Source: Candidatus Poribacteria bacterium
GTDB lineage: Bacteria > Poribacteria > WGA-4E > PCPOR2b
Direction of reading: 5' to 3'
NCBI GenBank assembly: GCA_965215015.1
Contig: OZ244042.1
Coordinates: 480,001 to 544,000 of the forward strand
DNA: 64,000 nt
Positions within the stretch are counted from its first letter, which is position 1. Every line of letters starts with the position of its first letter. The notes beneath the pieces are model-generated. The model was not told the DNA's origin. It saw nothing but the letters and a program-made list of their open reading frames with translations, and did not search any database. Below, one piece after another: positions 10,650 to 17,955 of the stretch. The translations under genes were made by a program, and so were the position numbers.

Positions 10650-12614
10650 TCACTGTACTGTCCAGAACCACACGACATACATCGGTGTCTCTAAAATCAC
10701 ACCTAGGATAGCCCAATAGCTGCCGCTCACCACATCACCCAGGACTAGCCCTAAGAAAAAGGGCAATACGCGTCGATACAGACGCGCTCCGCCATATTTG
10801 AGTATCGCAAGCTTAGCGACCGAGGCAAGAATTAACACGAGCCAGAATTGATCTAGTGTTCCGCCGTTGATGCCTATCACATAACCAACTGGGTGGAAGG
10901 GCCACCAGATAAACTTGAGCCGCATGATACCAAGAAACATCGTAAATATAAATGACACACCGATGACCGCTGATCCGTAAACATCCGTCGGGCGCGGAAA
11001 CTGTAACCAACCAGCCAGTCGGTTGTAGGTCCCCCAACCAGGCCCTAAAATCATCCCTGCCTTGCTGCCTCCATGGTTATACAGAACGTAAAGGTACATC
11101 AGAAACGCAGAGAAAACGCCTATCACAATCGCAAAGAGCATCACCCATAACAGTTTACGATGGTTCATTCCGGTGCGTTGCGCCAACTTAAAGCCTTCAA
11201 GTTGATGTGGCATAGGCTGACTGCGATTCTGGCTATTGAACCACGAAAAAAGCGAGAATACTACCAGATTACCACGCCCAAATGGACGTATCCCAAACAC
11301 CGTCGTCAAGGCAGTTTGTGGATTGACACCAGCCATGTCGTGGGCAGGTGGTCCAAGTTCAGCACGGACACGAGTCACAGCCATCGTGATCATTATGTAC
11401 AATCCGAAAAATAGGACGAATACCCACATGGACATCCCTGCCTGATTGCAAATAAGATAAAGGAGGAGAAGACAGACTACAATCCCTATGGCTGCCGATC
11501 GATAGCGCATCGGTTCGGTCGAATCACTGATAGATGTAGGCCTGCCGATGACCCGTTTACCAATCTCCCAAAAATGTTGCCTGCCTGCCCACATTGCCAT
11601 TACAACAATCGCAAGCGCGGCACCCATTGCTTGGTTCGGTTGAAAAGGATAGTAAGGGATCGTATACCAGCCAGCCGCCCTTCCTCCAATGTATTGTGCT
11701 TTGCGAATCCAGTAGAAAAATGCTGTCGAAAAACTCACATCCAGTGGCAAAAGAAAGCACAAGCCAATAAAAAACAAGCGTAGATGAAAAAAGGTCCCTC
11801 CAATCGCATTCCACGGCTCCTCGGTAAGCCACAACGAGAGATCCGCGGTCTTCTCGCGAATCGGTATTAGTGGGAAGGCCGGATAGAGGAAATTGATTCC
11901 GTTGATGATTTCGATGCCCGCTGCAATCGAGAATCCCAACCACATGCCGCGGTTCCGAAAGAGCTGCATTCCAGGTGCCGTCATATCGAGTGGCAGTTGG
12001 GTAATTGGATATGGCAGTTTTTCATGTTCAATCCATTGGCGTCGGAGCAACACATTTATAAAGGCGACAAGCGCGAAAATCAGGGAGGAGATGATTGTCC
12101 AACTCAGGATAGGAACGATCCAGTAGCGCAGATAGCCCTCTGTGAAGAAATTAGCCCCTCCCTCATAAAAAGGACGGGCAATGGTTGTGTTACCCATAAC
12201 GAGCCAGTTCGGAAGGTAAGGCTGGAGGATCTGTTTCCATTCGTTTTCGGGAGTGGCAAACCAGAAAGCGTGGCAGAGGGGTCCCATGAGACCGACCATG
12301 TTATCGTGGGCAACTACCGCTGTAACACATGCCAGCATGACATAGATGACGAGGAGTTCAGCTTGGCTCAACGCATATGCCGGAAGGAATCGTTGGGCAA
12401 TATAGTTCAAGAGTGCCAACACGAAAATAATGAAAATGACATTCATCGGGATTGAGGTTGCGGAGAAATGAAATCCGTGCCAGAGCATCTCTTCCATTCC
12501 AATCCAGTAGGCATTAATCGGCATAAGGATGCAACCCAATACCACAGCGCGTAGGGTAATCCGCGACTGAGAAAATTGAGGTGTAGAGGGAGAGGCCCCC
12601 ACCGTTTCTTTCAT
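10650..12614 (-). CDS. DUF6785/DUF6784-type membrane protein, paralog of 6994..9081
   Basis: WIEHEKLPYPI, RVRAELGPPAH, PMPHQLEGF, WWPFHPVGY; start uncertain (ORF open to 12749). Confidence 0.75.
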   Translation of the reverse strand: MKETVGASPSTPQFSQSRITLRAVVLGCILMPINAYWIGMEEMLWHGFHFSATSIPMNVIFIIFVLALLNYIAQRFLPAYALSQAELLVIYVMLACVTAVVAHDNMVGLMGPLCHAFWFATPENEWKQILQPYLPNWLVMGNTTIARPFYEGGANFFTEGYLRYWIVPILSWTIISSLIFALVAFINVLLRRQWIEHEKLPYPITQLPLDMTAPGMQLFRNRGMWLGFSIAAGIEIINGINFLYPAFPLIPIREKTADLSLWLTEEPWNAIGGTFFHLRLFFIGLCFLLPLDVSFSTAFFYWIRKAQYIGGRAAGWYTIPYYPFQPNQAMGAALAIVVMAMWAGRQHFWEIGKRVIGRPTSISDSTEPMRYRSAAIGIVVCLLLLYLICNQAGMSMWVFVLFFGLYIMITMAVTRVRAELGPPAHDMAGVNPQTALTTVFGIRPFGRGNLVVFSLFSWFNSQNRSQPMPHQLEGFKLAQRTGMNHRKLLWVMLFAIVIGVFSAFLMYLYVLYNHGGSKAGMILGPGWGTYNRLAGWLQFPRPTDVYGSAVIGVSFIFTMFLGIMRLKFIWWPFHPVGYVIGINGGTLDQFWLVLILASVAKLAILKYGGARLYRRVLPFFLGLVLGDVVSGSYWAILGVILETPMYVVWFWTVQ

Positions 12615-12780
12615 AAAATCATTTCTCCGATCCGTTGAAGAATTTGCTGCGGCCAGTTTTCTTCCATTCCGCTTTGCTTCCTCTTGGTCTGGGCGGCCCC
12701 GCTTCTCTTCAAAGTTGGGGAAATACAGATGGGTAGGAAGGATATGCAAAGACTTATGCTGGGTACTTACTTATCAAAGC

Positions 12781-15349: not shown

Positions 15350-15592
15350 CTATTCAAGGGCATCTTCTACTGCCTCTGGTAGGACAACGGTGCTTGGATC
15401 TACATCAATCGGATATTCGGTGCCATAGGCTGCAACAAGTTCGTCAAATGTTGCGTTATCCACGTTCTCCAGTTCTCCACCGGGACGATTGAGAAAAACA
15501 CCTCGGCAGCCATCACAACTCATCAGATCTACATCCGATCTCTCGATCGGGAATTGCGTGAGTGGATTATTACAACCTGAACAAGGAAGCAT
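15350..15592 (-). CDS. Small zf-TFIIB-like zinc-ribbon protein
   Basis: CSGC...CDGCRGVFL..GEL. Confidence 0.7.
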   Translation of the reverse strand: MLPCSGCNNPLTQFPIERSDVDLMSCDGCRGVFLNRPGGELENVDNATFDELVAAYGTEYPIDVDPSTVVLPEAVEDALE

Positions 15593-15652
15593 AGATTAGA
15601 TCCTTTCAAATAAAGGGTTTGCGAAGTCCGAAAACATAATTTGCGCTTATTA

Positions 15653-16849
15653 TTAGTCGGCAGCAGCCGCAAGTGCTTCGGAATGATCCATTTCACAGAA
15701 TTCGACATAATCACTGATTAGCTCGGTAATCGTCGGTTGCTCGCCGCAGATTGGGCAGTTCTTATCCCGACTCACTTTTAACTCACGAAACTTCATGCTC
15801 AGTGCGTCGTACATCATCAAACGACCGATGAGCGGTTCGCCAATGTCGAGGATTAGCTTGACGGCTTCAGTCGCCATCACAAGACCAATTGTGCCTGGGA
15901 GCACGCCCAGGACGCCAGCTTCGTTTCAGCCAGGCACCATGCCGGGCGGCGGCGGAGTCGGATACATGCACCGATAGCAGGGGCCATCGTGTGGCTTAAG
16001 GACGGTCGCCTGCCCTTCAAACTGGAAAATACTGCCGTGTACAATGGGTGTGTTCGTCAACACTGCAGCATCATTGACTAGATAGCGTGTTGCGAAATTA
16101 TCGCAGCCATCAACGACCAAGTCGTACTCATTAAAGAGATCGATGATGTTGTCTTCTGACAGTCGCATATTGTAGGGAACAATATTGACATCAGGATTCA
16201 GGAAAGTCATTGTTTCAGCTGCGGATTCGGTCTTCGGCTTGCCAACAGTTTCCGTGCGGTGGAGGATTTGGCGCTGCAAATTACTTAGCTCGACGACATC
16301 TGAATCAACCACGCCGAGTGTGCCGACGCCTGTCGCCGCAAGGTATAGTCCCGCCGGCGAGCCCAAGCCCCCTGCCCCAACGAGTAACACTTTAGCGTCA
16401 AGCAGCTTCGACTGTCCCCTTTCGCCGACTTCGCTCAGCATGAAGTGCCGGCTGTATCGCTCCAACTGATCCGGTGTCATCGGCTTATCTTTTGCCGTCG
16501 GGAATCCAGCTGCTGACCAATCTCGATATCCACCTGCCATGGATACAGAATCCATGTATCCCAGCTCTTTCAGGGCTTTGGCGGCGAGCAAGGATCTCAT
16601 TCCCGCAGCGCAATAGACAATCACTCTTTTGCCCCGATCTGGCACTTCGTCTTCTATCGAGAATTCGAGCATTCCCCGCGTGACATGGACAGCGTCAGGG
16701 ATATAGCCCGCTCGATATTCGTCCTCATCGCGAACATCGAGCAGCACGACATCGTCTCCGCCTTCCGCTTTTTCTTTTTGAGCTTCTTCAATAGAAACTT
16801 CTGGGACCTCTTTTTTAACTTCTTCGATCATTTGGCTTGTGGATTTCAA
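15653..16849 (-). CDS. moeB: Rhodanese-MoeB/ThiF fusion (MoeZ-like), probable selenoprotein, 398 aa
   Basis: ORFs 15926..16849 and 15653..15904 are one frame joined by TGA 15926-15928: PPPPGMVPG-U-NEAGVLGVLPG; YCAAGMRS rhodanese site, GAGGLG, CYRC, CPIC. Confidence 0.88.
15891..15925 (-). promoter_or_regulatory. Candidate bacterial SECIS element
   Basis: Stem CCTGGG/CCCAGG starts 15 nt after the UGA; loop CGTGCT has G at position 2. Confidence 0.6.
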
Positions 16850-16926
16850 TGCAATTCACCTCATTTGTTCAATCGAATATAGCAATCTCAGATTGTGTTG
16901 ATGATGGGAATTCACTTACAACTTTC

Positions 16927-16955
16927 ATTATATCACAAGCGGATGGTACTGTCAA
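16927..16955 (-). promoter_or_regulatory. Consensus sigma70 promoter for moeB
   Basis: TTGACA-17 bp-TATAAT on the minus strand. Confidence 0.8.
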
Positions 16956-17061
16956 AACTAAATTGAGATGTGATATACTTGTGCACATGCTTGTGTTCAA
17001 CGAGCATATCCAAGAATTAATAGAGGAGAAGGTAGAACGGGTTGGATGTTCTACGGAAACC

Positions 17062-17955
17062 GTGCAGACCCCAATTTCCATTGTTTTTGTTTTGTTGTCC
17101 GCGTTCTTCCACGCACTGTGGAACTACTATGGCAAAGCAAGTCGTTCGCCGCAATTGTTCTTCTTCTGGATCGGGGTGTTTACAGTAGGTATGGCGGCAC
17201 TTGTCTTCGCGCTGCAACTGCCAATCGCCCCAAAATCGGTTTGGAGTTATATCGCGGCGTCGGGTATCGTCCACTTTTTCTACTGGTTGTGCTTGAGCCG
17301 CGCCTATATGTCAGGCGAAATCTCTTATGTTTATCCGATTGCCCGATCTGCTCCCGGATTCATCCCCTTTTTTGCCTTCCTGTTTTTAAATGAGCGATTG
17401 TCAGTACAGGGCCTAATTGGCATATTTTCGATTGTCTTCTCGATCTATCTACTTCAGCAGCGGGACGGTAGATTGATATTCAAGGAACTATTTCAGTACA
17501 TCAGACAACCGGCTGCCGTTTGGGCGTTTTCGACACTCGGCACGGTGATCGCATACTCGCTGATTGACAAGGCTGGAATGTCCGAATTTCATGCACATTC
17601 GACCCAACGACACGCTTGGCAACCCGTGACCTACTTTTTAACGGAAAGCCTGATAGCGATGATATTGTATGGCAGCTATATCCTGCTTTGCTTCCCACTA
17701 CGGGAAATTACGGAGACTGGGCGTCGAGAATGGAAGCAGATTATCGCGACCGGACTGCTTTCAATGCTTTCTTATACACTTATCCTTTATGTTTATATGA
17801 CCGAAAGCGTCAGTTACGTCGTCGCGCTCCGCCAGAGCTCTGTGATTTTCGCTGTGTTACTCGGCGGATATCTACTGAAGGAATCACAAACGAAATTGCG
17901 ATTTGCGGCAGCGGTGGTGATGGTTATCGGGGTCGTTCTGATTTCAACAGCGTGA
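17062..17955 (+). CDS. EamA/DMT family transporter
   Basis: SAFFHALWN, GEISYVYPIARS, VVALRQSSV; start uncertain. Confidence 0.85.
   Translation: MQTPISIVFVLLSAFFHALWNYYGKASRSPQLFFFWIGVFTVGMAALVFALQLPIAPKSVWSYIAASGIVHFFYWLCLSRAYMSGEISYVYPIARSAPGFIPFFAFLFLNERLSVQGLIGIFSIVFSIYLLQQRDGRLIFKELFQYIRQPAAVWAFSTLGTVIAYSLIDKAGMSEFHAHSTQRHAWQPVTYFLTESLIAMILYGSYILLCFPLREITETGRREWKQIIATGLLSMLSYTLILYVYMTESVSYVVALRQSSVIFAVLLGGYLLKESQTKLRFAAAVVMVIGVVLISTA

Follow-up and report, generated by a model that had tools for sequence, protein, structure and literature searches.

A rhodanese-MoeB gene crossed by one in-frame TGA

We analysed a 64,000-nt window of contig OZ244042.1 (positions 480,001-544,000) from a Candidatus Poribacteria genome and focus here on an E1-like gene on its minus strand, at 15653..16849, whose reading frame is crossed by a single TGA that we predict to be decoded as selenocysteine (Sec). 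Translated from 16849 to 15653, the gene forms a single frame of 398 codons that ends in TAA, and its only internal stop is the TGA of codon 308, which lies at 15928..15926 (TCA at 15926-15928 of the plus strand) in the context ...PPPPGMVPG-U-NEAGVLGVLPG.... A listing of open reading frames (ORFs) under translation table 11 divides this frame into a 307-aa piece (15926..16849) and an 83-aa piece (15653..15904), both in the same frame. The original prediction for this DNA had described two same-frame ORFs separated only by a TGA, and the description stands, as does the position given for the TGA; the strand does not, the gene being on the minus strand and the letters quoted there being the reverse complement.

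Read through the TGA, the product carries an N-terminal rhodanese domain (PF00581, aa 23-114, 68.1 bits; 16508..16783, minus strand) followed by a ThiF/MoeB E1-like adenylation domain (PF00899, aa 132-366, 283.2 bits; 15752..16456, minus strand), the latter matching profile positions 1-237 of 238 and containing the TGA. The active-site loop of the rhodanese reads VYCAAGMRS, with Cys80 encoded at 16612..16610, and the two CxxC pairs typical of an E1 zinc site flank the TGA, C291/C294 before it and C365/C368 after it. In alignments to solved structures, residue 308 occupies the column of ThiF Cys184, MoeB Cys187 and the sole Cys of the Uba4 crossover loop (ThiF and MoeB residue numbers were counted from printed alignments; PDB 1ZUD/1ZFN and 1JW9), which bears out the equivalence to these cysteines that had been proposed.

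Among known systems, the NCBIfam model NF006444 (PRK08762) has the same domain order, N-terminal rhodanese then MoeB, and was matched over its full length (534.9 bits, cut-off 449; residues 4-387 aligned to profile positions 3-385 of 387), although its Cys-form members, from Binatia, Myxococcota and others, carry TGC or TGT at the crossover codon. The MoeZ model NF005902 scored 402.8 bits, under its cut-off of 647. Uba4, MOCS3 and MoeZ resemble the enzyme as two-domain adenylyltransferase/sulfurtransferases whose crossover Cys, in Uba4, aligns with residue 308, yet their rhodanese is C-terminal and they use sulfur where selenium is predicted here; by analogy the enzyme may work as they do, but it is not a member of that type. 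The likeness to E. coli ThiF and MoeB extends across the whole adenylation domain (~200 bits) and includes the crossover-loop residue, although both lack a rhodanese and have Cys, not Sec.

Upstream of the gene, a sigma-70-type promoter-like site at 16955..16927 on the minus strand (TTGACA, 17 nt, TATAAT, with TG before the -10 element) lies ~78 nt from the start codon and agrees, as a 12/12 pattern match only, with the consensus promoter that the original prediction had named. A Shine-Dalgarno-like GAGGTG (16857..16862, minus strand) stands 7 nt before the TTG start (16849..16847).

Conservation of the TGA and selection downstream of it

Conservation was assessed in an order-level sample of 41 genomes (this one and 40 relatives, from four families of one order) and in a phylum sample of 151 genomes, for which orthologs were accepted at E ≤ 1e-140. 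In 40 of the 41 order-level genomes the ortholog was full-length and contained a single TGA, while the 41st held a fragment, also with a TGA, and the TGA occupied the identical codon in all extracted loci (30/30 and 10/10, that is, 40/40 aligned orthologs). Across the phylum, 136 of 151 genomes had an ortholog and all 136 carried a single TGA; the other 15 gave no match with this query at E ≤ 1e-140, four of them belonging to the same order and 11 being all the genomes of the other five families. Beyond the TGA, the frame continues without a stop for 85-94 codons in 40/40 orthologs, and the ratio of nonsynonymous to synonymous substitution rates (dN/dS) over 13 partners was 0.05-0.21 downstream of the TGA, compared to 0.04-0.10 upstream where dS was not saturated. 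Purifying selection acts on the part of the gene that follows the TGA.

In other assemblies, we collected 80 loci of the same architecture, at which the crossover codon was TGA in 46, TGC in 21 and TGT in 13, and TAA or TAG in none of the 80. The TGA forms came from Poribacteria, Tectomicrobia/Entotheonella, Nitrospinota, Planctomycetota/Brocadiia and some mislabelled bins, and the 34 Cys forms were mostly Binatia and Myxococcota-type. The TGA is fixed across the order and not specific to one strain, and in other phyla it alternates with TGC and TGT, as expected of a Sec codon by the original prediction. In a quick maximum-likelihood analysis of 99 rows (33 Cys forms, 62 Sec forms and four paralogs as outgroup, after one 315-aa fragment and identical duplicates had been dropped), all 33 Cys fusions formed one clade (Shimodaira-Hasegawa-like approximate likelihood ratio test, 100), apart from the 62 Sec forms. 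This topology needs one Sec/Cys change, to which no direction was assigned.

Three titles in the tree look mis-binned: a sequence labelled 'uncultured Cytophagia' (L105) is nearly identical to a Poribacteria ortholog, with branch lengths of 0.003, and sequences labelled 'Gammaproteobacteria' (L123) and 'Proteobacteria' (L132) fall inside the Entotheonella-type clade. A second E1-like gene, at G000:C1:2557728-2558510 (L066), encodes a 268-aa protein without a rhodanese that is ~63% identical and has Cys (TGT) at the crossover position; a copy of this Cys paralog was found in at least 39 of the 41 genomes, among the matches listed.

The codon was also covered by sequencing-run records from other studies, which are assembled contigs and report presence only, not expression level or transcript ends. 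Contigs from one other study's run matched the whole 1701-base stretch with zero differences, and those from a third study's run covered 15818-16139, also with zero differences. Among the 40 difference rows listed (of 40 + 112), none fell at 15926-15928, and the idea that reads might carry TGC or TGT here found no backing in the contigs of the two other studies. Two sponge metatranscriptome libraries also yielded contigs across the TGA codon (run X15 record 2 spans 15891-16001), with DNA carry-over possible.

Selenocysteine machinery

The search for Sec machinery suggested along with the original prediction found selA, selB, tRNA-Sec and selD all in the genome, which is one contig of 5.94 Mb. 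The tRNA-Sec scored 76.5 bits (cut-off 47) and was called by ARAGORN as SeC with anticodon tca, and selA (609.8 bits) and selB (371 bits) lie directly upstream of it. The three genes stand head to tail in one plus-strand cluster at G000:C1:4763111-4766642. The selD gene (369.1 bits) itself has one TGA, in ...KTCG-U-AAK, and this TGA is followed after 13 nt by a hairpin, AGUCC-AGUU-GGACU, which is at a similar distance to that of the enzyme gene and has GU in its loop. SelD is itself a selenoprotein, encoded at G000:C1:3518779-3519699 (locus L023, TGA at about 1528). We found selA in 41/41 genomes of the order sample, in 5/5 and 4/5 other-phylum genomes with the TGA form, where one match was a contig-end fragment, and in 3/5 Cys-form genomes.

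The hairpin downstream of the TGA

The RNA after the TGA can form an apical hairpin, CCUGGG-CGUGCU-CCCAGG, at 15911..15894 on the minus strand, with a 6-bp stem and a 6-nt loop containing GU, starting 15 nt after the A of the UGA; it is a candidate Sec insertion sequence (SECIS). A possible extended lower stem (15879..15924, minus strand), rich in G-U pairs, has weaker support from the fold and from an alignment of 55 sequences. The fdhF-type SECIS of E. coli is a stem-loop directly after the UGA within the coding sequence, as here, with GU in its apical loop, which here lies ~20-26 nt after the UGA. The element differs from that type in having no Rfam match and in a stem mostly dictated by the peptide VLGVLPG.

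Codon usage over this peptide was unusually restricted in Sec forms. At conserved residues of the 40 Sec orthologs, codon entropy averaged 1.25 bits over the gene and fell to 0.66 at codons +3 to +14, the lowest of 34 windows, with Leu+6 encoded by CTG in 39/40, Gly+7 by GGC in 40/40, Val+8 by GTG in 40/40 and Leu+9 by CTC in 40/40. At the same residues in Cys forms, entropies were ~1.6-2.0 in 34 fusions and 0.8-2.25 in eight paralogs. In Sec forms the synonymous sites of the hairpin scarcely vary, whereas in Cys forms they do so freely, which shows a constraint on the hairpin codons at the level of the RNA; the conservation of the TGA and of the hairpin codons is beyond chance. The substitutions that do occur retain pairing, U-A becoming U-G at Pro+10 and C-G becoming U-G at two stem positions.

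Pairing was further assessed with 55 unique Sec-form sequences and a hand-made structure of 18 pairs, in which 87.4% of cells pair, compared to at most 48.3% when the structure is slid along the alignment. Nine Sec forms of Entotheonella-type bacteria and Nitrospinota (L111-L132) use a shifted register, one base off and with a 7-nt loop (CCUGGG-AGUUUUG-CCCGGG), ~15-35 nt after the TGA. In these, 63/63 cells pair, one pair, both of whose bases are third codon positions at synonymous sites, appears as C-G in six sequences, G-C in two and A-U in one, and the score was reached by 2/500 shuffles, a count that leans toward structure because the subset was picked by eye from its hairpin type. Taken as a SECIS, the element has a short distance to the UGA and a conserved loop, together with few double-sided changes and no Rfam match, and its binding by SelB is predicted.

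The stability of the hairpin was within chance for its peptide. The control consisted of 3000 random synonymous recodings of GVLGVLPGT over a 27-nt core, and for the 51-nt element 40-51% of synonymous recodings fold as well as the observed sequence. Sec forms had mean energies of −9.9 (23 unique) and −11.3 kcal/mol (13 unique), and Sec and Cys fold energies differed by a Mann-Whitney test on rows that are related and not independent (p = 0.0017). The hairpin alone is weak evidence, since any gene for the peptide VLGVLPG tends to contain a latent hairpin, and Cys homologs fold too because Leu-Gly (CUN GGN) and Pro-Gly (CCN GGN) codons are largely self-complementary. The hairpin that had been predicted 15 nt after the UGA is present, but as stand-alone evidence we dropped it, since its fold was not above that of shuffles or synonymous recodings.

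Decoding of UGA 308

The domains, the Sec machinery and the conservation of the TGA support the Sec-containing E1-like enzyme with its own N-terminal rhodanese that was originally predicted. From these sequence data, we consider it highly probable that the locus is a single intact E1-like gene, N-terminal rhodanese plus MoeB, in which UGA 308 (15926..15928, minus strand) is decoded as Sec by the SelA, SelB, tRNA-Sec and SelD of this genome under the direction of the downstream hairpin, with alignment, conservation and published members all pointing to Sec at this codon.

Several results weigh against this. The 64-nt fold had z = −0.06 relative to dinucleotide shuffles, and its observed −11.5 kcal/mol was matched by 11% (uniform codons) to 18% (gene codon usage) of recodings. 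Cys homologs also fold, with means of −8.65 (32 unique fusions) and −6.7 kcal/mol (eight paralogs). Across the 55 Sec forms covariation was not above shuffles (92 of 500), one pair only being changed on both sides, and RNAalifold retained only four pairs with a covariation term of −0.01. Rfam gave no SECIS match in 15500-17000 at E up to 10, the rows returned being three at chance level for snoRNAs or pseudoknots. One other-phylum TGA-form genome had no selA match and one had the contig-end fragment only, both being metagenome-assembled genomes that may be incomplete. The support for Sec insertion is, moreover, drawn from sequence alone.

Of the other readings, the one that fares best, though we hold it to be very improbable, is read-through of the UGA without selenium, in which position 308 would receive a standard residue, either from a near-cognate tRNA (for Trp or Cys) or because UGA has been reassigned. 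In its favour, the identity of the inserted residue cannot be read from sequence; but TGA also serves as the terminal stop in the lineage (orthologs L043 and L051), a complete Sec system is present and its selD uses the same recoding, the position is Cys in every non-TGA homolog, and the hairpin codons are constrained in TGA forms only. Slightly less probable again is a split gene, with the TGA a true stop and the 307-aa product assembling with a second piece of ~83 aa translated from the GTG at 15904 or nearby. Table 11 does list both ORFs, public catalogues contain the 306-307-aa product, and purifying selection downstream would also fit a separately translated piece. Real terminators vary among TAA, TAG and TGA, however, and this stop is always TGA and never TAA or TAG (40/40, 136/136 and 46/46 non-Cys loci). 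The codon also alternates with TGC and TGT in homologs, the proposed GTG start lies within the hairpin, and in other phyla the Sec forms have GTT or GTC instead, and TGA forms co-occur with selA. A nonsense mutation in a dying gene or a miscalled base, though only one base change separates TGC or TGT from TGA, has next to no probability, given that 136/136 orthologs, drawn from separate and in many cases single-contig assemblies, have the same TGA, that the downstream frame is open in 40/40 orthologs with dN/dS of 0.05-0.21, and that contigs from two other studies' runs cover the codon with no difference there among the rows listed. All three of these readings were rejected.

Relation to the published Sec-MoeB family

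Selenocysteine-containing MoeB had been mentioned in the original prediction as reported, and it is indeed a published family (PMC1088965, PMC2398784). A Sec 'molybdopterin biosynthesis MoeB protein' was described as a new selenoprotein family from the Sargasso Sea in 2005 by Zhang, Fomenko and Gladyshev, with 11 sequences (PMC1088965); 19 sequences followed in the 2008 Global Ocean Sampling study (PMC2398784), and the family is listed in reviews of 2022 and 2026 (PMC9312934, PMC13188914). Of the 11 MoeB entries in supplement file 1 of PMC1088965 we compared seven, and all of these read ...LVPS-u-[AS]VAGVLGVLPG, with the core GGCGTGCTCCC (six) or GGAGTGCTCCC (one) after the TGA. Six of the seven are long enough to show a rhodanese, which is at the C-terminus. 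The excerpts of the family literature cited here contain no biochemical or Se-incorporation data for Sec-MoeB.

The Poribacteria enzyme shares with the Sargasso entries a ThiF/MoeB (COG0476) domain, Sec in the same column and the same or nearly the same hairpin core; the supplement entries have both, so the place of the Sec and the core of the SECIS had already been published. It differs in the place of its rhodanese, N-terminal here and C-terminal in the six entries long enough to show one, and in its host, a Poribacteria-type sponge symbiont rather than open-ocean plankton. The gene combines a ThiF/MoeB domain, a UGA at the Cys column and a downstream stem-loop with SelA, SelB, tRNA-Sec and SelD in the host. 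As Sec-MoeB is already a published family, this is not a new kind of selenoprotein; judged by sequence, UGA 308 almost certainly encodes Sec at the catalytic-Cys position, and the enzyme is almost certainly a further member of the family predicted in 2005.

Proposed mechanism and candidate sulfur carriers

In Uba4, Cys225 (Cys202 in CtUba4 of Chaetomium) is described as forming a thioester with the adenylated carrier, which the rhodanese persulfide converts to an acyl persulfide and then a thiocarboxylate (PMC6007339, PMC7527816), and ThiF Cys184 as forming an acyl disulfide with ThiS (PMC12596934). If the enzyme works as Uba4 and ThiF do, its MoeB domain would adenylate the C-terminal glycine of a carrier of the ThiS/MoaD fold, and Sec308, in a flexible crossover loop, could then attack the acyl-adenylate to give a selenoester or, at a later step, an acyl-selenosulfide. 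A persulfide on rhodanese Cys80 would take over the acyl group, and the carrier would be released as the thiocarboxylate. Selenium in place of sulfur would offer a better nucleophile and leaving group.

Three points tell against this scheme for the enzyme. Cys187 of E. coli MoeB is dispensable. The window and the 14 loci examined held no sulfur carrier gene within 3 kb of the enzyme gene. The bacterial MoeB/MoaD system, finally, is described in PMC6007339 as using no thioester, and for this reason, and because Cys187 is dispensable, it is an extrapolation to assign the crossover residue of a bacterial enzyme a catalytic role. The fixation of Sec in 136/136 orthologs, in turn, speaks for a chemical role of the crossover-loop residue in enzymes of this type.

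The genome has four ThiS-family carrier genes: a CysO-like one beside JAB, PALP and PAPS-reductase genes, a MoaD beside MoaE, a ThiS between a ThiO-like gene and ThiG, and a fourth beside a molybdopterin-binding protein gene. These four lie near G000:C1:2997229, 1701762, 4357371 and 4803233, all of them away from the enzyme gene. Pfam searches of nine window ORFs and 62 ORFs from the 14 loci found no ThiS/MoaD, JAB or CysM gene adjoining the enzyme, and no gene context conserved across phyla was found in the window and these loci. Elsewhere in the genome, the region G000:C1:2995729-2998989 (L166) encodes a ThiS-family carrier, a prokaryotic JAB protease, an NIL-domain protein, a PAPS-reductase-domain protein and a fragment of a PALP enzyme, in a layout that resembles the thiocarboxylate-dependent sulfur amino acid pathway of the CysO/Mec/CysM type. 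A pathway of that type would need an E1-like activator such as rhodanese-MoeB.

Catalogue entries and wider implications

The original prediction expected standard annotation to call the gene a pseudogene, and this was not what we found: protein catalogues list a 306-307-aa protein ending ...GMVPG. The nearest entry has 307 aa, is 95% identical over 77% of the query, shows this ending and represents 210 member sequences, and 12 more of the 120 listed catalogue matches are 306-aa truncations at 73-78% identity. Catalogue protein P0002 starts at the residue equivalent to the TTG start. Because such entries lack the last quarter of the protein, including two of the four zinc-type cysteines, reconstructions of Poribacteria, Entotheonella-type bacteria and Nitrospinota may treat the enzyme as broken. 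Read as a selenoprotein, the gene would extend the selenium demand of sponge symbionts to a sulfur-relay enzyme, and comparison of Sec and Cys forms would be a clean probe of the mechanism of E1-like thiocarboxylation.

We also raise, tentatively and with less than even confidence, a broader proposal, namely that the VLGVLPG codons after the crossover Cys of MoeB/ThiF-type enzymes may be a latent SECIS and that Sec fixed across an order marks the residue as truly catalytic in bacterial rhodanese-fused E1-like enzymes. In Cys forms too, CUN GGN ... CCN GGN codons fold into a hairpin ~15 nt after the Cys codon. If a latent SECIS is present, a switch from Cys to Sec would need only TGY → TGA plus a few synonymous changes, which would explain how one hairpin core (GGCGUGCUCCC) serves opposite domain orders. 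If the fixed Sec is catalytic, a selenoester or selenosulfide intermediate would be implied, although for MoeB itself the point is disputed.

Neighbouring genes

On the minus strand at 15350-15592, 60 nt past the stop of the enzyme gene, lies an ORF for an 80-aa TFIIB-type zinc-ribbon protein (PF13453, E = 6e-8), which is not a sulfur carrier because it has no Gly-Gly end; a homolog flanks the enzyme gene in 24/30 loci of the order and in 0 loci of other phyla. On the other side, a divergent ORF for an EamA-family transporter occupies 16837-17955 of the plus strand, and its listed TTG start overlaps the start codon of the enzyme by 13 nt; its true start is probably further downstream, because its Pfam match does not start until about residue 260 of 372. 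Farther away in the window, at 10650-12749 on the minus strand, a 699-aa protein with DUF6785 (514.8 bits) and DUF6784 (101.8 bits) is encoded upstream of a gene for a PnrA-like ABC substrate-binding protein.

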